Origin: Escherichia coli
GTDB lineage: Bacteria > Pseudomonadota > Gammaproteobacteria > Enterobacterales > Enterobacteriaceae
Length of the DNA: 64,000 nucleotides
Assembly: GCF_011045215.1 (NCBI RefSeq)
Contig: NZ_CP049201.1
Strand: one strand, 5' to 3'
Shown here: one piece after another, positions 16,460 to 25,620 of the stretch
Numbering within the stretch: position 1 is the stretch's first letter
Layout: each line of letters opens with the position of its first letter
Translations under genes and position numbers: made by a program
The notes under the pieces: model-generated
What the model was told of the DNA's origin: nothing
What the model saw: the letters and a program-made list of their open reading frames with translations, nothing else
The model's database searches: none

Positions 16460-16687
16460 TTACATGCTGTAACCGGGTTTCTTTATCAAAGCCTCCATTT
16501 GGGGCGCGATTTCGGCATCCCAGATAGCTTGCCAAGATTCTGGTTGAATCTGCTGTAGAGCAATGCTTATCGAAATGTCTTTACTGTTCAGATGGCGAAT
16601 AATAACGTCGGTAATATCTGCAGCAAGTGCTGCTTTTTGTTGTTCGTCCAGTTCACGCGGAAAACATTTAATGTCGATGTGCGGCAT
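16460..16687 (-). CDS. pptA: Tautomerase PptA (4-oxalocrotonate tautomerase family)
   Basis: [33 protein letters not shown]; Pro2 tautomerase signature; ATG at 16685-16687 with an upstream AGGAG. Confidence 0.85.
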
Positions 16688-16978
16688 GATTGTGCTCCTT
16701 TTGAAAGATGTCAGTAAAATTAACACACATTGTGAATGTCGTATGTCCGGTGATGCGTTTTTACGACAATAATGCCTACTTGAAATTGTAGATATTTGCA
16801 CTACACCCTTTTAAATAAAGCACCAACAAATCGTCAACTTGCAGAACATATTCTTCTGCCTACATACCATTAAGAAAACATCAAGTTTCCGACTTGCCAA
16901 TTTATTAATGCCCATTATAGACGCTGAAACAAGCCACGGACAAAGAAGATGCCAAAATTACCGGCGATGCAGAAAAAC

Positions 16979-17350
16979 TCAACGAACCAGGGCAAGATTA
17001 CGAAAGCCCGCTCCCGCAAGGACTGACGCCAGATAGTTTCTGTCCATGGCTGCTTTTCGCATCTTACGTCTTAACCCTGCCTTGAATACCTTATCATTCG
17101 TCAAAATATTAATAGCAATGTGCCGTATCCCTGAAAATAATTCTGCAGCATTTCCTCTTCTTATTTTGCAGTCGTCTTCATTCATTACCACGTCCAGACG
17201 CCAGTGCAGCTTATTCTCCACGTGCCAGTGGTTTCGGATTGCTGTGGCGAACTTCTCTGCGGTTAAATCAGCAGAACTGATATAATATCTGACCGTCATT
17301 TCTGGCTCTTTCTTTTGTTCTGCTATTATTGACCGAAAGGAGACTGCCAC
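16979..17350 (-). mobile_element. Truncated H-repeat-associated (ISAs1-family) transposase remnant, C-terminal 123 aa only
   Basis: [30 protein letters not shown] is the conserved C-terminal DDE region of H-rpt/ISAs1 transposases (K-12 ydcC/yncI lie at the equivalent place). The N-terminal two-thirds is missing. Confidence 0.7.
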
Positions 17351-17667
17351 GCATAATTTCTTCAGTCCTTTCCATTCAAACGTGAAATCAATAAGTTCAT
17401 CAGGGACATCGCAAACAATATGAAGACGGATTTCTTCTCTGCCGTGACTAAAATGCGAATTATTTAGTACAAAAAAAGCGGCGCACCTTGTTCTTTCCCA
17501 GATTCCTAATATGGCAACTTTAAGTTATCGCCGTCTATACTTATAGAAATTTCATCAGGGGTGACGTAAATAGAATTTTTTTCATCCTCAATTGCCCATA
17601 ACTGATTAATAAAAAAGTATTTTTTTCATCTAATAAAAAATTATCACATGTAGTAAAATTATTAATA

Positions 17668-18327
17668 TCAAAAAAAATCATCAGCACAATTAATTTTTAA
17701 ATTTAAAAAATAAAGAAAAATATTATTGATTGATTTGAGTGTAAACCACTTGTCATTAACAAATTTATAGCCAGATGATTTTATAAAATAATAATTATCT
17801 CCTGGTATAAAGGCATACATATCATTTAAGGTTATACTCAACAAAAAACTACGACCTGGTTTAATAGTATTCCACCGTTCAGGATTCGTATTAATTTCAA
17901 AAGGACATGAACCACCTAAGTAGTCCAACGTGATATTCCCAGAGTTGATTCTGAATGGTTTTTTGCATATCGCATCATATTCATCTCCTTTTCCATCTTT
18001 TACTTTCATAGGTAGATAATATTTAGAAAAAAAATACGTGGTAGAGCTATTGTTAGTAAAGGTTATGTTAGCAAAAATCCTGTTATTTTTTTTACTCATA
18101 GCTAATTGAGCATTGACATCCGCTATATAATTTATATGATTACATTTTTTCTTACACTCATCATAATTTTCGATAGGATAAATTAATGGCCTTCCTTTGA
18201 TATCTCTCTCAAGCCCAAACCCGTATTTTTTTATTAAAACCATTTCATCCGCAGTCGATTGAAAGGAATAGAAAAATATAATATTTACGATTGTCATTAT
18301 TATGATTTTTTTTATAGCTTGCAGCAT
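17668..18327 (-). CDS. Hypothetical exported protein (219 aa) with N-terminal signal peptide; AT-rich island ORF
   Basis: Hydrophobic N-terminus IIIMTIVNIIFFYSFQSTADE; strongly AT-rich; no family recognised. Confidence 0.45.
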   Translation of the reverse strand: MLQAIKKIIIMTIVNIIFFYSFQSTADEMVLIKKYGFGLERDIKGRPLIYPIENYDECKKKCNHINYIADVNAQLAMSKKNNRIFANITFTNNSSTTYFFSKYYLPMKVKDGKGDEYDAICKKPFRINSGNITLDYLGGSCPFEINTNPERWNTIKPGRSFLLSITLNDMYAFIPGDNYYFIKSSGYKFVNDKWFTLKSINNIFLYFLNLKINCADDFF

Positions 18328-18350
18328 TAATATATTTCTCGACTTATTAG

Positions 18351-18653
18351 TTAATGGAGAAGTGCTTTTTCTAATTCCGCTATTTTTTTCTTAACTGAAT
18401 TGCTTAATATTTCATCATTAATCGAGTCTATCTCACTTTCAATTAATCTTATTTCAAAATATCTTTCTATGTTATATGCATTCTCAAATATTTGATCTTT
18501 TTGTTTAGAGATCAGTTTAGTTGCAATACGGATATGTTCGTCATATGAAACTTCATCCTCTTTGCACGTTGAATATTTATCAGTAGTTGTATAATTCTGT
18601 GACCACATACCACCTTTTTTATTATCCCCATAATACCACTGAATATGAGACAT
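18351..18653 (-). CDS. Hypothetical small protein (100 aa), candidate immunity or accessory protein
   Basis: ATG at 18651-18653 with GGAAAGGA upstream; AT-rich; inside the VgrG island. Confidence 0.4.
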   Translation of the reverse strand: MSHIQWYYGDNKKGGMWSQNYTTTDKYSTCKEDEVSYDEHIRIATKLISKQKDQIFENAYNIERYFEIRLIESEIDSINDEILSNSVKKKIAELEKALLH

Positions 18654-18691
18654 TTCATGACATAAAGTAGCAACATGAGAATCCTTTCCCG

Positions 18692-19141
18692 TTACTGGAT
18701 TTTTTTGCCATCTCTATACTCAAATTTTGCGCCTATGTTAATTATATAGGGCATATCCTTACTTGGGCTGACGAATGCTGCAAATTCATTACAACCTGTA
18801 TAATTTATAAAACTGCTCATTGTTAAATCATTAGCTATAATCATTAATCTTCTCACACCATCCATCATAAGAAATCTAGCATTCATGCGCCTAACTGTAT
18901 TATGTCCATATTTTCTTATATTAACTTCCTTATTTCCTTTAACACCAAAGATCTTACTGAAATCATATTCCTCCTGTGCTCCCCATCTCAAAAGATCATC
19001 TGCTCTTTTTATCAAAACCAACTTTTGTGCCTTACGAACCTTATCAATCATTATTTTAAAATGATCAGTTATTTTTTGCTCTTTCACACATTCTTCTGGC
19101 TCTGGCTTTGGTTGTCCAGAAGTTTGATTATTATCGTCCAT
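18692..19141 (-). CDS. Hypothetical protein (149 aa from the ATG with an RBS; the longest ORF runs to 19198)
   Basis: GGAAGGA then ATG (MDDNNQTSGQ...) at 19141; AT-rich; no recognisable domain. Confidence 0.4.
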   Translation of the reverse strand: MDDNNQTSGQPKPEPEECVKEQKITDHFKIMIDKVRKAQKLVLIKRADDLLRWGAQEEYDFSKIFGVKGNKEVNIRKYGHNTVRRMNARFLMMDGVRRLMIIANDLTMSSFINYTGCNEFAAFVSPSKDMPYIINIGAKFEYRDGKKIQ

Positions 19142-19327
19142 AGTGTCCTTCCATTGAGAGAAAATCATCATTCGCAAATAGCAACTAAAAAGCAGCATTA
19201 CTTGACCTTTCCCTGCATAACAATATTTATAAAATAATACGTTTTATGATCTCACCTTGGGCTCCCAACAAGATAATTTCAGTTTTAAAGACTTTCACGA
19301 AAAAATATAGAAATACCTCACCACCCT

Positions 19328-19618
19328 TCACTTACCAATTAATCTCACAGGAAATCCAACTTCCTTACCACAAATACAATCCCAAGTAACATTTCCCAAA
19401 ATTTTTGATACTTTAGGCTGCAATGGCATTATTGACATTATAAATTTATCAAGTTCTTCGCTATATTTAATTCCCTTTATATTTCTTATTATTGATATTC
19501 TAGCAGTAAAGATAGCCGTCTCTCCATCTACACTAAAAGTGTAATTACAATTTTTTGTAATCTCATCAAATTCAACCGATAACAAATCAATATTATGGTT
19601 TGTAAACACTATGCCCAT
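19328..19618 (-). CDS. Putative cognate immunity protein (96 aa) for the upstream T6SS toxin
   Basis: Start overlaps the toxin stop by 26 nt, a typical toxin-immunity arrangement; small and AT-rich. Confidence 0.5.
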   Translation of the reverse strand: MGIVFTNHNIDLLSVEFDEITKNCNYTFSVDGETAIFTARISIIRNIKGIKYSEELDKFIMSIMPLQPKVSKILGNVTWDCICGKEVGFPVRLIGK

Positions 19619-21032
19619 TCCATACCTCCTTAAATTCCTGTTCAGTCATCAGATATCGACTCCCTTGATATGGATCATATATTATCACATTCCCAGCATC
19701 ATCAACACCCTTAACAAGTACCCAATGTCCTACTTTACTTCCAGAATCCCACATCATTGCTCCCCATGAACCAGTATTACTGAGGGCATATAAACTAGAT
19801 TCGCTCACTGCATTCCCTTCCCAGCCGACATCAAATTTATTAAGCTTGTTTGCCAGCGACGTCATAGATGTTAATTCTGTTCCAATTACATTTTGCGTGA
19901 CAAAAATATACCTATCCCTAAGCAACATTTCCCCACAGGCCGCTCCACAGCCTGTTAAAGTCAATTGCTTTATTACATTTGAATCTAAAACCTCATCAAA
20001 TACTGTCCAATTGCCACCAGCACCACCTTCTAAAACTACCGGCTCTACAAATACTTTCCCAGAGATATTTTCTTCTGGTATTTTTGCGGGTATCATAAAG
20101 CCCCATAAAAAGCTGGAAAAATGCTCCAGAGCAATCTGATCACCATTATTTGCATCCATTATCATTTTTTTAAGTGCATCCCATGCTTGCCCATTTATCA
20201 ATGAATCACTAATATTAAATAAAGCCTGTTCTTTTTCGTTTAAATTTATATTTGCCTGTTCACATAACCCATCTTCGCCTATCGGGCAAGCAACCGTTGC
20301 CGTTGCCGTATCTAACAGAGCATCGAATGTAACTAAGGCTAAATCCGCCACACCATGTAAAGTGGTGATTGCTCCATTCCCCATTTGAGTAAGTGTGTTC
20401 TCTCCAAACCATTCTCTAATTTGAGATTTATCTCCTTCAATACCATTCCTGAGAGATTCTCTGATATTCTTTATTGAAAAAAACTCCCCCCATGATTGGT
20501 CAGGATCTTTTATTTGGAATAAATCATTTTTAACCTCAGGTGAAATATCTCCGTCAAAAATATTACCAACAGAGAGGAGATCCTTCAGAAGCAGTAAATC
20601 GTGTATTACTTCAGCAGTCCTTTCATAATTAAAACTTCTATCAATGACAGAAATCATTGGTGATTTTATTTTGGTATATAATTTACCAAGGCAGTTATGG
20701 TTATTAATCCCAACAACTGAACCATGATAAGCAACAGGTTTCCCTTCTATTGTTACAGTCGGACTTCCCGTTAAAATAACACAGTCACCCGTTCCTTGAG
20801 ATGTACCGGATATGACACCTTTACCGGCATTACTTTGAGTTCCAGCAATCACTGAACCAACATTTAAAGCTCTGCATCCACGCGCCCATACCGTTGAACT
20901 GTACTGTCTTTCACTATCTAAAGTCTGGTAACTGTCAAAAGGAACCTTGTAACCTCCTACTTCACATACATCTGGTGAAGTACACACGACTCTAAATCTA
21001 GATTCACCATCCCCGATATGATAGTTACCCAT
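19593..21032 (-). CDS. T6SS polymorphic toxin: N-terminal PAAR-like (DUF4150-type) domain, C-terminal papain-like cysteine peptidase (C39-like) domain; 479 aa
   Basis: N-terminus VCTSPDVCEVGG...GSPTVTIEGKPVAYHGS resembles PAAR-like spike-capping domains. C-terminus has a CGAAC motif at residues 362-366 and GHWVLV...D...IYDP at 436-453, a Cys/His/Asp arrangement like peptidase C39 folds. Follows vgrG and the DUF2169-like gene. Confidence 0.6.
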   Translation of the reverse strand: MGNYHIGDGESRFRVVCTSPDVCEVGGYKVPFDSYQTLDSERQYSSTVWARGCRALNVGSVIAGTQSNAGKGVISGTSQGTGDCVILTGSPTVTIEGKPVAYHGSVVGINNHNCLGKLYTKIKSPMISVIDRSFNYERTAEVIHDLLLLKDLLSVGNIFDGDISPEVKNDLFQIKDPDQSWGEFFSIKNIRESLRNGIEGDKSQIREWFGENTLTQMGNGAITTLHGVADLALVTFDALLDTATATVACPIGEDGLCEQANINLNEKEQALFNISDSLINGQAWDALKKMIMDANNGDQIALEHFSSFLWGFMIPAKIPEENISGKVFVEPVVLEGGAGGNWTVFDEVLDSNVIKQLTLTGCGAACGEMLLRDRYIFVTQNVIGTELTSMTSLANKLNKFDVGWEGNAVSESSLYALSNTGSWGAMMWDSGSKVGHWVLVKGVDDAGNVIIYDPYQGSRYLMTEQEFKEVWNGHSVYKP

Positions 21033-22071
21033 AATATTTTTTCCCTATACATTCAGGAATAATACAACTCAGCACTCCTTCTTTCATTCCAAAAAAATCA
21101 GGTATTGTTAATCTCCAGGTAAGGTATATTTCCTGTCGACTTAAATCGATAACCATTGTATCCGCAACAGGTAAGAACATATGTGATGTATTATGCTTGG
21201 TTTTTAATATAAGTACAGGTCGTATACCTGGCAATTTTGTCTTAACAACCTGTTCAAATTTAAAAAAACCTTCAAGAGAGATGTTTTCATCGCCAGAGAG
21301 AAACCCCGTGTATATCATATCCGGATGAGCACTATTGTAGAACCGCTCATCAAAATCATCCGGCAAATAGGGATAGCGCTTTTCACGCCATACTTCATTG
21401 TAGGTTCCTGCATACTGGAGGCGACTTTTCCACCATCGAGATACAGGGCCAACACCTTGAAAAAAGTCAGATTCCCCATTAAAAATGGTAGCGTTTTCTG
21501 ACAAAGCAGAGCTGGTTATTTGTGGGAGTTTATATTGACAACTTGTATTAAGTTGGGAAATATCAGGATAATATCCACAACCTACAGGGTTTGCTGAAAA
21601 AACCAATTTCTCCATACCATCTGGTTGCCAAATACCACCGTAAGCAAGCTCATAGCGTAGAGGAATATTAATAATTTTATCTGGTAAGCTCATCTGCCAA
21701 CGATTTCGCTCATATTGTAAGTAGCGGACACCAGATAAACTCAGTTCTTTAGAAAAACTATTAACCCTCACACAAGCCTTCCACTGAGACTTATCCCCTG
21801 AAGGGGCATGAGCACTACCTGTCACGTGAATATCTGTATTTCTTTTACAAAGAACTAAGTCTGTTTCAGATTTTAGACTACTTGTTTCAGGCTCCCCATA
21901 GTATTCATCAGACATGGACAATTCTCTTTGAAATTCAGCAAGATCAGCATAAAATCCATTTTTAATTCGCAATGACATTTTAATAGCAATAACATCAAAC
22001 AAAAGACCATAACGACCATATTTTTCAAATGACAACAAAGGAAATGGCGTGTTATTTTTCATTTCTATCAT
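21025..22071 (-). CDS. DUF2169-like T6SS adaptor/chaperone protein (348 aa)
   Basis: Called mainly by context: lies between vgrG and a PAAR-like toxin, and its stop overlaps the toxin start by 8 nt (translational coupling). Confidence 0.5.
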   Translation of the reverse strand: MIEMKNNTPFPLLSFEKYGRYGLLFDVIAIKMSLRIKNGFYADLAEFQRELSMSDEYYGEPETSSLKSETDLVLCKRNTDIHVTGSAHAPSGDKSQWKACVRVNSFSKELSLSGVRYLQYERNRWQMSLPDKIINIPLRYELAYGGIWQPDGMEKLVFSANPVGCGYYPDISQLNTSCQYKLPQITSSALSENATIFNGESDFFQGVGPVSRWWKSRLQYAGTYNEVWREKRYPYLPDDFDERFYNSAHPDMIYTGFLSGDENISLEGFFKFEQVVKTKLPGIRPVLILKTKHNTSHMFLPVADTMVIDLSRQEIYLTWRLTIPDFFGMKEGVLSCIIPECIGKKYYG

Positions 22072-22177
22072 GCTTATTGATCCCTGAATAAGTCATGCTA
22101 TGATTAATTTAAACAATCACAAATGGTGATTCACAGGCGTATAAAGCAAATACAATCACCATGTTTTATATTCTGCA

Positions 22178-24160
22178 CTATCCGTTCAGATGAATATCTT
22201 TTCCTTTAATATCTACAGGACCGGTAGCCTCAAATAGAAACTCCGTCCCCCGTATTATTATCTTTCCTGTTTTCTCCAGTTTTATGGAACAAGTCCCGCT
22301 CTCTCCCTGCCCACAAATTAGCTCAATACTGTCCCCAGATATGATTTTTGTACCATGCTCAACTTTCAGTTCGTAATTATCACCTATTTTAATACTCTGT
22401 TTTTTGACGACTTCTTCGGTATCAGTTCCCGTCACCTTGCTTGTCTGGTTGTTATTCACAACCTTGTGCCGGTCATTTTTTATCGTGAGATGCTGATCGT
22501 TCGCTACCGTCACTTTCTGGTCATGACCACCTTCCTTTTTGCTCCCCACATTCACCGTCTGGCCCTTCACCACCGTTATCTTCTGGTTGTTACCGATGGT
22601 TTCCGTATGGTCATGTTTCACATCCGTTGTCCGGTCGTTGAGCACCTCCGTATCCATGTTCTTCTGGGCATGGATATACACCTGCTCATTACTGGTGGCG
22701 TCTTCAAACCGTAGCTCGTTAAATCCGCTTCCTTTATAGGTTTTTGACCGGATGGTCATCTGCGTCTTCGTTCCCGGCAGGTCGCCCGGGGAGCGGTTAT
22801 CTTCATGGTAGGTCCGTCCCGTGACGATGGGCTGGTCCGGGTCGCCGTTCAGGAAGTCAACAATCACCTCCTGGCCCACCCGCGGTATCGCCAGGTTACC
22901 GAACCCCGGCCCCGCCCACGCCTGCGATACCCGCACCCAGCATGAACTCGCCTCCGTCATCCCGTGATAACGGTCCCAGTGGAACTTCACCCGTACCCGG
23001 CCATGTTCGTCGCAGAATATCTCCTCACCCTTCGGCCCGGTCACAATGGCACTCTGCGGCCCGTCCACCTTCGGTTTGCTTTGCAGCCGTGGACGCCACG
23101 TCCGGTCTGCCGGTATCACCTCTAACTGATTTCCCAGCGTGGTTCCCCTCCCCTGGCTGCCGTGCAGCGCCTGCGGCTGGCTTCCTGACAGTATGCTCTG
23201 TACCACCTGCCATTCACGGTTCAGCATCTTCTGCGGATGCCCCGTCAGCGTAAACCGCGTTCCCGGCCACAGCTTCGGTGAATTACTCTGCCCTGTGGCC
23301 TTTTCCGCATCACTGCGCAGGCTGTCCATCTGGTACAGCGTGAAATCCTTGCCGTGCTGCTCATCCTTGAACCTTCCCGGATAATCAAATATCTCGTACT
23401 GCGCCAGCTGTCCGTTCAGGTTCTCACCCTGCTGCTCATACATCCCCGGCCAGTCCGGCACCTTAAACGTGTAATCCTGACTCTGCACCGACGACGGGCG
23501 GACATGCGCCTCATAACGGAACGTACTGAGACACTCCGTCTCCGCTCCTGCCGATGTGTCCGGGTTAAACGGAAGCTCTCCCGCCTGTGACAGCCCCGCC
23601 ACATCGTCGCACAGCGTCAGCTTCTGCTCCGGGCTGTCCGCCGCAAACCGCTCAAAGAAGAAAATCCCCTCCTCCGCCCACAGCCGCGCCAGAAACGCCA
23701 GGTCGCTCTCTCCGTACTGGACACAGAACTCCCGCGCCGGATGGTCTTCATAAAACAGCGGCGTCCACTCCGTGACGCCGTTCTCATTCAGTAACGTGGC
23801 CGATATCGTCCGGATATCCTGCTGCTGGAAGATACGGAAGTTCTGCCGCAGCCCGCACCGCCATAACGGCGGCTCAATACGCAGGTGATAACGCATCTGC
23901 CAGCCATTGTTCTCCTGCATGCCAAAACCCGCCACCACGCCGGTGACATAACGCAGCGGGATGACGCCCTGCCAGATGGTCAGCGTCGCCTTCTTCTCCA
24001 GCAGCATCTCCGCCGTCTGCATAAAAGAGTCGCTGGCAACATCCACACTCATCACAAACGGATATGACTGGTTCTGGATTAACCTGAAGCTCACCACTGC
24101 AAAGGTGTCCGGCTCCTGGCCGTCAACCTCCAGCGTAAAGCGCAGACCTTTTAAGGACAT
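22178..24160 (-). CDS. vgrG: Type VI secretion spike protein VgrG (660 aa)
   Basis: N-terminus MSLKGLRFTLEVDGQEPDTFAVVSFRLIQ and central gp27/gp5-like regions (IFDYPGRF, HWDRYHG, VGQEVIVDFLNGDPDQPIVTGRTYH) are hallmark VgrG motifs. The C-terminal third is AT-rich and repetitive. Confidence 0.88.
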   Translation of the reverse strand: MSLKGLRFTLEVDGQEPDTFAVVSFRLIQNQSYPFVMSVDVASDSFMQTAEMLLEKKATLTIWQGVIPLRYVTGVVAGFGMQENNGWQMRYHLRIEPPLWRCGLRQNFRIFQQQDIRTISATLLNENGVTEWTPLFYEDHPAREFCVQYGESDLAFLARLWAEEGIFFFERFAADSPEQKLTLCDDVAGLSQAGELPFNPDTSAGAETECLSTFRYEAHVRPSSVQSQDYTFKVPDWPGMYEQQGENLNGQLAQYEIFDYPGRFKDEQHGKDFTLYQMDSLRSDAEKATGQSNSPKLWPGTRFTLTGHPQKMLNREWQVVQSILSGSQPQALHGSQGRGTTLGNQLEVIPADRTWRPRLQSKPKVDGPQSAIVTGPKGEEIFCDEHGRVRVKFHWDRYHGMTEASSCWVRVSQAWAGPGFGNLAIPRVGQEVIVDFLNGDPDQPIVTGRTYHEDNRSPGDLPGTKTQMTIRSKTYKGSGFNELRFEDATSNEQVYIHAQKNMDTEVLNDRTTDVKHDHTETIGNNQKITVVKGQTVNVGSKKEGGHDQKVTVANDQHLTIKNDRHKVVNNNQTSKVTGTDTEEVVKKQSIKIGDNYELKVEHGTKIISGDSIELICGQGESGTCSIKLEKTGKIIIRGTEFLFEATGPVDIKGKDIHLNG

Positions 24161-24178
24161 AAATACCTCTCAGACATA

Positions 24179-24463
24179 TCAGCCTATATTTACCGTACCG
24201 CCACCAATGACCACGCCGCCGCAGTCAACAGCATCACCGCTTCTGGCGGCGGGCAGGCCGTCAATAAAGACGGTTGAAGAACCTCTGGCGATTTTACGGG
24301 GATGAGGGGGATGCTTCGGTTTAGCATGCGGCGTCAGCGGATCTCCCTGACGGGCTGCGGGGAGACCATCGATAAAAACGGTGGATGACCCGGCGGTGAT
24401 GACGGTCTCGTAATAACCGTCGTGCTGAGTGCCTTTGTCGGTGAGTTTGGCTGCTAAAGGCAT
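24179..24463 (-). CDS. PAAR-repeat protein (T6SS spike tip), 94 aa
   Basis: Two copies of SSTVFIDGLPAAR(Q/S)GD plus an N-terminal AAKLTD motif; 18 nt upstream of vgrG on the same strand. Confidence 0.75.
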   Translation of the reverse strand: MPLAAKLTDKGTQHDGYYETVITAGSSTVFIDGLPAARQGDPLTPHAKPKHPPHPRKIARGSSTVFIDGLPAARSGDAVDCGGVVIGGGTVNIG

Positions 24464-25002
24464 AATTTCTCCTGTTCAGAATTTCTACAGCAGCAGGTTT
24501 CAAAAATCCGGAGAAATATTCAACGAAATATTAATCACTTCACCGGATATTCTGATACGTACCTTCACTGGTCTATTTAAGTAATACAAATTGTTGGCGT
24601 GTATTAAGTTCCATTTTGTTCTCCTTAATTATGTAAGGAGTATTTGATCATGTATAAGCAATAAAAACAGCTTCAGGAAATAAGGAATATCGCAATTTTT
24701 AAACATAAAATGCGAATCGTTCAATACAAAAAAGCAGCGTTGCGTAATCTTTCCCTGATTAAATACGCTACCGCCCTACCCTGATGACATGATCTGCACT
24801 GCACTATCATATCGACATGTTTCTCTACATGCGAAAAGATGTTTTATTTTCGGATTATATTAAATTGACATTTCATATAAAAAACGAAATTACATCAATC
24901 ATATAAATAATTGTACCAACTTTAATTACTATTCATAGCAAACAAATGGATATCCAGTTAACTACGCCAGTGATTCATTAACATTAACCTCCGGCATTAT
25001 TG

Positions 25003-25620
25003 TTAAATAATGACATTCCTTTTTAATACTTCTTGTAATTTCGGTAACTGACATACTGCATCAGCAATCGCACTGATATTCGTGGCATTATCCTGAAACC
25101 ATTCATGCCCAGGCCCCCATGTGCGCATAGTGCAAAGATAACAGTCCACCAGCGTTAGTTGCTCACCAAACGCATAAGGTTCAGCGGTCAATTGTGAATT
25201 CAGCCAGATATAAAGCGATTTACGATATTCAATAACATTCTTCTTTAACTGTTCAGGTGCGTCAGATGCCCAACGCTCAGGGTAATCGGCGAAAGTGAAT
25301 GTTGGATAGACATTAGCAACCAGCCAGACCAATAGCCGTTGAAACTGCTGACGTTCGGCGCGCCCAACCGGTGGCGCAAGGTCCGGGCGACGATCGAGAA
25401 CCATCAATGCAATCGCCGCTGTCTCCGTCATAATCTCGTCATTTTCCAGAGCCAGTGTCGGAACCTGACACAACGGGTTCAGGGTTTTCAATAACTCGCG
25501 TGAAGTTCCCTCGTGGTCAAAACCACTGACATCAACGAACTGATAAGGAATATCAGCTAGTGTTAGCATCAGCTCACTGATTGTAGAGCCCCATCCGGGT
25601 ACGCCATACACCTTAATCAT
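25003..25620 (-). CDS. yncG: Glutathione S-transferase homolog YncG
   Basis: 205 aa, MIKVYGVPGWGSTISELMLTLADIPYQFVDV (GST N-terminal fold). Confidence 0.85.
   Translation of the reverse strand: MIKVYGVPGWGSTISELMLTLADIPYQFVDVSGFDHEGTSRELLKTLNPLCQVPTLALENDEIMTETAAIALMVLDRRPDLAPPVGRAERQQFQRLLVWLVANVYPTFTFADYPERWASDAPEQLKKNVIEYRKSLYIWLNSQLTAEPYAFGEQLTLVDCYLCTMRTWGPGHEWFQDNATNISAIADAVCQLPKLQEVLKRNVII

Follow-up and report, generated by a model that had tools for sequence, protein, structure and literature searches.

Behind the genes of a Cpe1-type toxin and its immunity protein, a 64,000-nt stretch of Escherichia coli DNA from contig NZ_CP049201.1 (the window) carries three open reading frames (ORFs), and the question is what they encode and why they lie in this place. 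An earlier note on this DNA had read them as three separate minus-strand genes of a VgrG island, AT-rich and of no recognisable family, and proposed that they are orphan immunity genes or displaced toxin C-terminal cassettes. All three ORFs were recovered at the coordinates reported for them (ORF list):

18692-19198, minus strand: ORF of 168 aa (149 aa from the ATG at 19141)
18351-18653, minus strand: ORF of 100 aa
17668-18327, minus strand: ORF of 219 aa

The stretch is indeed AT-rich, its GC content being 26-34% versus ~52% in the nar/yddE flank. A scan of positions 16500-25000 against Rfam gave nothing at gathering score. Between 17300 and 19700, neither promoter predictions (17 versus 13.5±4.2 in shuffled sequence) nor terminator predictions (1 versus 0.7) exceeded expectation.

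An effector gene split by a frameshift

The locus contains two genes, not three. Alignment with three other E. coli genomes (33F4, MS20675 and W224N) showed that the 168/149-aa and 100-aa ORFs are a single 792-nt gene that has lost one base and is thereby split. With one A inserted, the translation is a 263-aa protein that matches WP_069913544 from strain 33F4 at every residue. The family is a recognised one after all: NCBI records name it 'peptidase M35' or 'M35 family metalloendopeptidase', in ~10% of complete E. coli genomes. The locus is thus an ordinary one, already annotated in other genomes. The features of the split gene are as follows:

18351-19141, minus strand: pseudogene of a 263-aa M35/aspzincin-like type VI secretion system (T6SS) cargo effector, 791 nt (792 nt when intact); from alignment to 33F4, MS20675 and W224N and from 'peptidase M35' in NCBI records
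18700-18706, minus strand: A7 homopolymer, the frameshift site (A8 when intact); from alignment and exact k-mer counts
18692-18694, minus strand: stop codon ending the N-terminal fragment, reached after A7
18645-18659, minus strand: codons H162-E163-M-S-H166, the HExxH zinc/catalytic motif; from the repaired translation
18594-18596, minus strand: codon 183, AAT (Asn), where the family has Asp; from the family alignment

The ATG at 19141 is preceded by GGAAGGA and is the real start of the effector, so that the ribosome-binding site proposed for the 149-aa ORF stands. The one proposed for the 100-aa ORF is coincidental, because this ORF starts at Met164, within the HEMSH motif. A deletion junction (described below) runs through the first 19 codons of the 168-aa reading, which are not ancestral coding sequence. 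The frameshift falls just 5' of the zinc motif, which lies downstream of A7 and is thereby cut from the N-terminal half. The codons for H162 and E163 are outside both ORFs and neither half holds a complete HExxH, so the 149-aa protein alone is not expected to be toxic. The 149-aa and 100-aa ORFs are the dead halves of one metallopeptidase effector. Residues C161, H162, E163 and H166 are invariant in all 32 family members; position 183 is Asp in 31 of the 32 (GAT in MS20675 and W224N), whereas the window allele has Asn there, as does the A8 allele of 33F4.

The assignment to a VgrG island was borne out. In all eight other contexts (from E. coli, Salmonella, Buttiauxella, Franconibacter and metagenomes) the effector homolog lies directly 3' of vgrG and is followed by a homolog of the 219-aa protein. 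The effector start overlaps the annotated 3' end of vgrG by 8-14 nt in six of these, and in the other two it begins 1-5 nt past an upstream ORF cut by the contig end. A Rhs- or PAAR-toxin C-terminal cassette was considered and rejected: the ORFs align full-length to a stand-alone effector gene, not to Cpe1, and comparison with Cpe1, Cpi1 and Rhs tips revealed no similarity. Of the two origins proposed earlier, an orphan toxin-immunity remnant is thus retained and Rhs-style cassettes are not. The earlier note had also named degenerate fragments without conserved homologs as the result that would go against it; the fragments are degenerate, but conserved homologs exist.

The effector fold and its closest known systems

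The effector gene is predicted to encode a leaderless zinc metallopeptidase of the aspzincin (MEROPS M35-like) fold, as computed here from a structural model. The AF2 model of the effector reached a pLDDT of 89, and its six best matches in the PDB (Foldseek) were all aspzincins, with E-values of 2.5e-4 to 1.5e-2 (4/6 at E <= 0.001), probability 1.0 and TM-scores up to 0.65 on target length; no non-aspzincin PDB entry matched below E 1.7. The significant matches are 1ge6, 2x3a, 1g12 and 1eb6. The family profile matched AsaP1 at E 1e-6 and the Grifola peptidyl-Lys endopeptidase at 4e-5. Against Pfam Aspzincin_M35 (PF14521), the repaired protein alone scored E 0.0046 (17.8 bits), which is below Pfam significance; across the family, E <= 0.1 was reached in 20 of the 32 members and E <= 0.001 in four. 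A single-sequence PDB search with the effector gave marginal matches only, and NCBIfam and PADLOC scans of the effector and partner proteins found no family.

The effector family has in common with AsaP1 of Aeromonas salmonicida (2x3a), the Grifola enzyme (1g12/1ge6) and deuterolysin (1eb6) the HExxH motif with a downstream (G)TxD Asp, the NA-N-E-YF C-terminal motif and the predicted fold. It keeps the (G)TxD Asp and a NAYNIERYFE motif, and the YG part of GTxDxxYG is unconserved; in the short subfamily this Asp follows the second His at +9, the spacing of the Grifola enzyme. Asp183 is accordingly the predicted third zinc ligand, an assignment made by alignment and spacing, the HMMER pairwise alignment to AsaP1 placing the aspzincin Asp elsewhere. 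The window allele reads Ser-Gln-Asn (Asn183) at this site, and the putative ligand that the family possesses is lost. The effector differs from known aspzincins by an additional helical N-terminal region and by an insertion of 8-10 residues between HExxH and TxD. Moreover, aspzincins are made as secreted zymogens that carry a signal peptide and, N-terminally, a propeptide, whereas the effector has neither a signal peptide nor a β-sandwich pro-domain; the propeptide-like fold is found here in the separate partner protein, not in the effector chain. Aspzincins favour Lys at P1'; since meso-DAP resembles Lys, peptidoglycan might be considered as a substrate, though only speculatively.

The closest known system is the 'M35-peptidase, module 5' of strain BCE049, an ortholog at the same chromosomal locus (the yncG-yddH vgrG island) whose protein has 4 substitutions in 263 residues relative to the repaired window protein. 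The two loci have the downstream partner and the ISAs1 remnant in common. However, the BCE049 copy is intact, has Asp183 and stands behind its own PAAR-VgrG (801 aa), whereas in the window the gene is frameshifted, encodes Asn183 and is without its cognate vgrG. The BCE049 effector, FQU84_13640 (WP_000342575), was reported to be toxic only with a PelB leader and not in the cytoplasm (PMC7904677). In E. coli PAR, AKO63_2955 is toxic (expressed from pET22b), is neutralised by the downstream protein AKO63_2956 and binds VgrG via DUF2345 (PMC10673891); primer mapping identified AKO63_2955/2956 as the P0023-type paralogous pair. This M35PAR-AKO63_2956 pair belongs to the same families as the window pair (effector identity 30-34%, partner phmmer E 3e-22) and occupies the same position after vgrG, but it is located in a T6SS main cluster behind a DUF2345-type VgrG, whereas the window-type effector follows a VgrG with a Gp5_trimer_C-type C-terminus.

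VgrG2b C-ter/PA0261 and Tpe1-Tpi1 (PMC6899460) resemble the window pair in that a T6SS HExxH metallopeptidase with periplasmic toxicity is paired with an immunity protein that faces the periplasm. The Tpe/VgrG2b-type immunity proteins of enterobacteria are lipoproteins, whereas the window partner has no lipobox. VgrG2b C-ter is labelled 'M35' in PMC10673891; it is a thermolysin-like gluzincin with Glu983 as third ligand and is fused to VgrG (Wood et al., PMC6899460). Homology to it was rejected on this ground and because neither the family profile against PDB sequences nor Foldseek against the PDB returned a match.

The exported partner

The 219-aa ORF is a truncated form of the gene that follows the effector elsewhere:

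17668-18327, minus strand: 219-aa ORF, cognate signal-peptide (periplasmic) immunity-type gene, truncated; homologous to the gene 3' of every M35 homolog examined
~18250-18327, minus strand: signal peptide of the 219-aa protein; conserved in homologs
17670-17677, minus strand: T8 homopolymer (T7 in the 261-273-aa forms), which puts the TGA stop at 17668-17670 in frame; from alignment
17506-17667, minus strand: out-of-frame 3' remainder of the immunity gene; from translation and alignment

The export predicted for this protein earlier is upheld by a Sec-type N-terminus (MLQAIKKIIIMTIVNIIFFYSFQSTA|DE), the signal peptide being kept in the homologs. Full-length partners have 273 aa; the window form is shortened at the C-terminus by the T8 frameshift, and the ...IDGxxxKLPY C-terminus, which is conserved in the Salmonella and Buttiauxella homologs, persists out of frame up to the ancestral stop at 17506-17508. 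The last part of this remainder is returned to the original frame by another indel, also in a homopolymer (an A-run), but lies behind several stop codons. Each M35 homolog that was examined is followed by a homolog of the partner (phmmer E-values from 1e-71 to 1e-15), and a pair of cysteines is conserved among these partners together with the signal peptide. In the AF2 model, an N-terminal helix is followed by a β-sandwich. The 219-aa form adjoins an intact effector in MS20675.

The 219-aa protein most likely binds and blocks the protease in the periplasm and so would shield the producer and its kin. It is unlikely that it serves instead as a folding pro-domain in trans, as a co-effector or as an unrelated periplasmic protein. 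The closest structural match to it is a protease pro-domain, and such domains also serve as folding chaperones; the gene is, moreover, frameshift-polymorphic even beside intact effectors, with two annotated ORFs in BCE049, and some genomes with an intact effector have a disrupted partner gene. Yet in 8/8 contexts its occurrence and divergence strictly follow those of the effector. It is also exported to the very compartment in which the effector acts as a toxin, whereas the effector, having no leader, remains in the cytoplasm of the producer, and the paralogous AKO63_2956 neutralises its own effector (PMC10673891).

The structural match, which is to a pro-domain of the AsaP1 type, would go further if taken at face value: the immunity protein may be an aspzincin pro-domain turned into a separate gene, making the pair a 'split zymogen'. 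We hold this tentatively, at somewhat under an even chance, the match being one of fold alone in an AF2 model built from nine sequences. The effector would then correspond to the catalytic domain of an AsaP1-type protease and the exported partner to its inhibitory β-sandwich propeptide, blocking the active site in the periplasm as it does within the zymogen. By sequence, a link between partner and propeptide was not detected with profiles against PDB sequences or a large protein database: the former gave spurious matches only for the immunity family (iota-carbonic anhydrase and hemocyanins), and the latter retrieved the same family only and no M35 zymogens. If true, this relationship would offer a simple evolutionary route from a secreted zymogen to an effector-immunity pair, and the likeness to propeptides is the sole part of our findings of wider interest.

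The deletion junction and the decay of the effector

The surroundings of the pair are made up of parts of different origin:

19142-19186, minus strand: 45-nt 3' remnant of the cognate 801-aa vgrG, including the ribosome-binding site of the effector; homology to the W224N vgrG-M35 sequence begins here
19186-19187: deletion/recombination junction, with sequence from downstream of cpi1 on the 19187 side and the vgrG 3' remnant on the 19186 side
16979-17470, minus strand: ISAs1 (H-rpt) transposase remnant, a module boundary; a partial ISAs1 is present in all related records
19328-24463, minus strand: upstream module now abutting the pair (from annotations of homologous records), comprising:
24179-24463, minus strand: PAAR
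22178-24160, minus strand: VgrG, 660 aa
21025-22071, minus strand: DUF2169
19593-21032, minus strand: PAAR-like Cpe1-type C39 toxin
19328-19618, minus strand: Cpi1

Cpe1 and Cpi1 have been described previously (PMC12136450). The junction joins the vgrG remnant to the Cpe1-Cpi1 module, and with only 45 nt of its cognate vgrG left next to it, the window copy of the effector is an orphan. The window is identical to FDAARGOS_1254 as far as the exact base at which an ISAs1 end starts in that genome and is of the W224N type from there on. BCE049 shows the two modules in a tandem, ancestor-like layout. The earlier note had advised a search for a recombination junction upstream of each cassette; the boundary turned out to be a deletion scar at the ISAs1 end.

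The lesions of the effector gene are unevenly distributed among genomes. The intact effector is carried by ~9% of complete E. coli genomes. Among ~519 complete genomes that carry the gene, an exact 72-mer with A8 is present in 453 and an exact 71-mer with A7 in 33; the Asn183 allele has an exact match in four. The 81-mer spanning the deletion junction of the window is identical in 34 complete genomes. Of these junction carriers, 26 have A7 and four N183, against seven and none of the ~485 genomes in which the cognate vgrG is retained, an excess that reflects largely one clonal O145:H28 lineage and thus few independent events. A7 is present in all complete O145:H28 genomes. The exact 149-, 168- and 100-aa products of the window occur on 7 contigs, a sister 149-aa fragment (also A7) on 402 contigs from many independent projects, and the 219-aa form of the partner on at least 1000 contigs. 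PGAP lists the effector fragments as separate CDSs in O145 genomes.

These counts bear on three further explanations. According to the first, which appears improbable, the A-run is a site of recoding or phase variation, at which -1 slippage on AAAAAAA or reversible mutation between A7 and A8 keeps the toxin switchable. A -1 slip on A7 would give exactly the ancestral ...GKKNPVT... reading, the sporadic A7 in the seven genomes outside the junction lineage indicates that the tract does slip, and at least five homopolymers of variable length were seen when the effector and partner genes were aligned. On the other hand, an A8 run keeps the gene in frame in 453 of ~519 genomes, and homologs from other genera all consist of a single ORF; there is no conserved shift, and the tract is short for a contingency locus. 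A7 was mostly inherited clonally within O145:H28, and the repaired product would still have N183 and no cognate VgrG. The second, that the frameshifts are homopolymer assembly errors and the genes of this strain are intact, is highly improbable. Both lesions are single-base changes of length in A/T runs, the classic type of long-read error, and annotated lengths of the immunity gene differ widely among assemblies; nevertheless, the recurrence of the window products, of the sister A7 fragment and of the 219-aa form on the numbers of contigs given above, together with the agreement of the complete O145:H28 genomes, speaks against it. The third, three small genes each functional alone (orphan immunity genes and/or a displaced toxin tip), can be practically discarded in spite of the three start codons and the separate PGAP CDSs, for hundreds of genomes have one gene that is collinear with the two upstream ORFs, the 100-aa ORF begins inside HEMSH, the 168-aa ORF takes its 5' end from junction sequence and nothing resembles Cpe1, Cpi1 or Rhs tips.

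The region thus very probably holds a T6SS aspzincin effector that was orphaned and is decaying, together with its periplasmic immunity gene. As in other strains, translation of the ancestral effector gene would have been coupled to the 3' end of its own dedicated vgrG (801 aa), and its product was presumably loaded on the VgrG spike and fired into the periplasm of rivals, where it would be toxic; a Sec-exported partner with a putative disulfide-containing β-sandwich accompanies every member of the effector family. A deletion whose end coincides exactly with the ISAs1 terminus then probably took away an ISAs1 copy together with the PAAR gene and spared only 45 nt of the cognate vgrG, leaving the pair behind the unrelated VgrG-DUF2169-Cpe1-Cpi1 module. 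Deletions adjacent to an insertion sequence normally retain that element. As it is gone here, the mechanism of the deletion is uncertain. The effector gene, now lacking its carrier, appears to have decayed through Asp183Asn and the loss of one nucleotide in the A8 run, while the immunity gene persists as the common 219-aa form. The gene structure, its lesions, the junction, synteny, fold and population frequencies come from the comparisons above, and toxicity of the ortholog in the periplasm and neutralisation within a paralogous pair from the literature; from these we infer the succession of events, decay through relaxed selection, the mode of inhibition and protection by the 219-aa form. Orphan modules of vgrG and Rhs islands likewise consist of a toxin-immunity unit stranded after its carrier was replaced or deleted, with the immunity gene kept. 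The window differs from them in that a whole cargo-effector gene was stranded by a deletion at an ISAs1 end, not a swapped tip with a recombination motif.

For annotation, 'three hypothetical ORFs' become one pseudogene and one truncated partner gene, and this two-gene reading accounts for their position behind an unrelated toxin-immunity pair. The locus would be a tidy example of the fate of a T6SS cargo effector after loss of its spike gene, in which the toxin gene gathers inactivating lesions and the likely protective partner persists. That the partner persists agrees with the view of orphan immunity genes as a defence retained against relatives that are still armed.

An orphaned effector-immunity module next to cpi1

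What remains at this locus is a copy, orphaned and in decay, of a type VI secretion system (T6SS) effector-immunity module that is already known and annotated and has been tested in part. The chromosomal segment in the window runs narZYWV-yddE-nhoA-yddH-pptA and then an ISAs1 (H-rpt) remnant, beyond which the minus strand carries, in order:

17668-18327, minus strand: 219-aa ORF, immunity-type partner gene
18351-18653, minus strand: 100-aa ORF, second effector fragment
18692-19198, minus strand: 168-aa ORF (149 aa from the ATG at 19141), first effector fragment
minus strand: cpi1
minus strand: 479-aa PAAR-like C39 toxin (Cpe1 type)
minus strand: DUF2169 gene
minus strand: 660-aa vgrG
minus strand: PAAR gene

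The three-ORF stretch has a GC content of 26-34%, against about 52% in the flank. The earlier note had placed three separate ORFs at these positions, which are confirmed, and had read them as displaced toxin or orphan immunity genes of no recognisable family. The ORFs are real and an orphaned effector-immunity module is borne out by junction and synteny; the division into three is not, since alignment joins the 168-aa and 100-aa ORFs into a single broken gene, leaving two genes. A megablast search of 5,426 complete E. coli genomes showed that about 510-520 carry this DNA, with one 792-nt gene spanning both ORFs. It is annotated as 'peptidase M35', 'M35 family metalloendopeptidase' or 'zinc-dependent metallopeptidase', so a family name was already on record.

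A four-way alignment revealed seven A residues at 18700-18706 (A7), versus A8 in the other three sequences, and adding one A yields a 263-aa protein identical to WP_069913544 (strain 33F4). The frameshift lies 16 codons 5' of HEMSH; the N-terminal fragment terminates ...DGKKIQ*, the 100-aa ORF starts at Met164 within that motif, and residues 148-163, His162 and Glu163 among them, are absent from both. A separate A6/A7 run near the effector 3' end gives 253 rather than 263 aa in W224N (L003 6930-7691), ATCC 11775 (L020 7821-8582) and APEC O1 (L025 3766-4527), the C-terminal helix of the shorter form ending 10 residues early.

Loss of the cognate vgrG and decay

In the phylogroup-B2-type layout (APEC O1, ATCC 11775, PAR, W224N and MS20675), PAAR-VgrG (801 aa)-M35-partner-ISAs1 remnant lies between yncG and yddH, and the first 11 nt of the effector gene overlap the end of vgrG. 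BCE049 has two tandem modules split by an ISAs1 copy: PAAR-VgrG-DUF2169-PAAR-like toxin, ISAs1, PAAR-VgrG-M35-partner. On the 3' side of cpi1, the window is identical to FDAARGOS_1254 up to the exact first base of the latter's ISAs1 end; past that base (19187|19186) it continues into the 801-aa vgrG, of which just the final 45 nt are present, and then into the effector gene. This is most simply read as a tandem arrangement that suffered a deletion, in which the ISAs1 copy and the PAAR gene would have gone together with almost the whole cognate vgrG; the mechanism is uncertain because no ISAs1 copy is left at the junction. In all, 34 complete genomes share this 81-nt junction, so it arose once and was then inherited. 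The whole window arrangement is rare, with at least 80% of 17400-25400 covered in only one complete genome.

The true effector start is the ATG at 19141, preceded by GGAAGGA. Codons 1-19 of the 168-aa ORF (19142-19198) cross the junction, and the ATG at 19198 is not ancestral because its sequence comes from the other side, sitting in other strains between cpi1 and the ISAs1 end; the extra N-terminal residues arose by accident in the rearrangement.

A GC(T/C)GCTTTTT motif flanks the stranded module on either side, at the junction 3' of cpi1 (19187-19197) and directly before the ISAs1 remnant (17470-17490; GCCGCTTTTTTT|GTACTAAATAAT), and may mark an ISAs1 target or end sequence involved in rearrangement. 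Two proteins annotated as partial VgrG (P0075, 425 aa; P0078, 338 aa), with Phage_GPD, Phage_base_V and Gp5_trimer_C domains, also match between a third and two thirds of the partner's length with 87-91% identity, which suggests further deletion variants fusing vgrG to the immunity-type gene.

A second lesion affects codon 183, which is AAT (Asn) in the window and 33F4 and GAT in MS20675 and W224N; the 71-mer bearing Asn183 matches only 4 of about 519 carrier genomes.

Effector lesions in carrier genomes
Junction carriers: 34 genomes; A7 in 26, Asn183 in 4, neither in 4
Carriers retaining the cognate vgrG: about 485 genomes; A7 in 7, Asn183 in 0, neither in about 478

Both lesions are combined in the window allele, whose exact fragments occur on 7 public contigs. 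The A7 junction carriers belong mostly to one O145:H28 clone and therefore represent few independent events; the excess of lesions in junction carriers fits relaxed selection on a toxin no longer loadable.

A probable divergent aspzincin family

The repaired effector alone gave weak Pfam matches (Aspzincin_M35, E 0.0046; Peptidase_M91, E 0.023), and an NCBIfam scan matched no model. The family is small: clustering at 90% identity gives 29 clusters, and 1.84 billion proteins yield 46 representatives at 50% identity. Its named members are Enterobacterales throughout. Across a 32-member alignment, C-H-E-x-x-H is invariant, NAYNIERYFE is near-invariant, and a (G)TxD motif C-terminal to the former retains its Asp, the predicted third zinc ligand, in 31, the window allele being the single exception. 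NAYNIERYFE resembles NADNHEYFAE of AsaP1, an Aeromonas salmonicida aspzincin; the Asp is at +9 from the second His in the Grifola enzyme, as in the shortest effector subfamily, and longer members have an 8-10-residue insertion there. The family profile matched AsaP1 (1e-6) and Grifola peptidyl-Lys endopeptidase (4e-5) among PDB sequences, and the only significant structural neighbours of the effector AF2 model (pLDDT 89) were aspzincins. Based on these motifs, profile matches and neighbours, the family is filed as a divergent aspzincin.

'T6SS effector locus 1' of BCE049 (FQU84_13600-13645), which includes an 'M35-peptidase' (PMC7904677), is the same locus as the window's. Four residues, including position 183, distinguish this protein (WP_000342575) from the repaired window protein, and it inhibited E. 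coli growth only when periplasmic via a PelB leader (PMC7904677). Published primers for 'M35PAR' (AKO63_2955) and its immunity gene (AKO63_2956) map to a paralogous effector (P0023 type) and its 308-aa downstream gene, both included in our alignments; that pair was reported as toxic and neutralised by the downstream protein, with VgrG binding through the DUF2345 domain (PMC10673891). The same paper, from 2023, applies the label 'M35' to the C-terminal domain of VgrG2b and treats that domain and the E. coli PAR effector as equivalent. Membership of that domain in the effector family was rejected: it is a thermolysin-like gluzincin according to Wood et al. (PMC6899460), and profile and fold searches with the effector family gave no link to it. 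It works like the PAR-type effector but belongs to another family, and because these searches left the two unconnected the label looks loose. Cpe1/Cpi1 are described in PMC12136450, where the genes downstream go unmentioned.

Paralogous effector-partner pairs also occur in E. coli T6SS main clusters (L007/L008 3615-7554; L009/L010 3498-7800; L016 1498-8741), one type 3' of Hcp-VgrG and another 3' of ClpV-VgrG(DUF2345). At locus L016 there are two tandem VgrG-effector units, so several versions of the toxin family can be present in one genome.

The partner and its probable resemblance to a propeptide

A gene without a Pfam match lies 3' of every effector homolog looked up (Salmonella, two further E. 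coli paralogs, Buttiauxella, Franconibacter and two metagenome contigs), and all the products are homologous to the 219-aa protein (phmmer E 1e-71 to 1e-15). The signal sequence proposed earlier for the latter holds, and all partners whose gene is called in full share a Sec-type signal peptide. The two cysteines C121 and C141 are invariant, and a C-terminal ...I-IDG-x-x-K-x-x-Y segment is conserved. Since the C-termini of the Salmonella and Buttiauxella partners resemble that of the 273-aa E. coli form, the comparison indicates that the window's ORF is a shortened partner: a T8 run (T7 elsewhere) puts a TGA in frame at 17668, and the rest of the gene is still recognisable as far as the old stop at 17506. 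The 219-aa form is real and probably tolerated or functional; it is the commonest form in public assemblies (at least 1000 contigs) and adjoins an intact effector in MS20675. Other length-variable homopolymers are an A7/A8 run in the signal-peptide codons (33F4) and an A-run close to the 3' end.

Broken or shortened partner ORFs are annotated in BCE049 (L024 29063-29834), O145 RM9872 (L011 8004-8345) and 2018-05-2CC (L012 1656-2111). The BCE049 partner adjoins an effector that is intact and was toxic in the published test; either the gene is dispensable there or these assemblies contain homopolymer errors. A 273-aa protein of Salmonella enterica subsp. arizonae/indica (P0092) clusters with the E. 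coli partner at 90% identity, which points to a recent exchange of the module between genera.

The AsaP1 PDB entries matched by the partner are inactive-mutant zymogens, and the propeptide of AsaP1 reportedly inhibits the enzyme intramolecularly. The effector AF2 model matches the same entries via the catalytic domain; the part matched by the partner model is almost certainly the propeptide, because the partner is a β-sandwich. Sequence-profile searches with the partner family against PDB sequences and a large protein database gave no signal for a propeptide link, and a literature search found no paper joining aspzincins with T6SS. The locus is ordinary as a finding, and the propeptide resemblance, which may be a new lead, is the sole element worth following up. 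If true, the pair would represent a zymogen whose two parts are encoded by separate genes, and immunity would be a pro-domain-style blockage of the effector active site.
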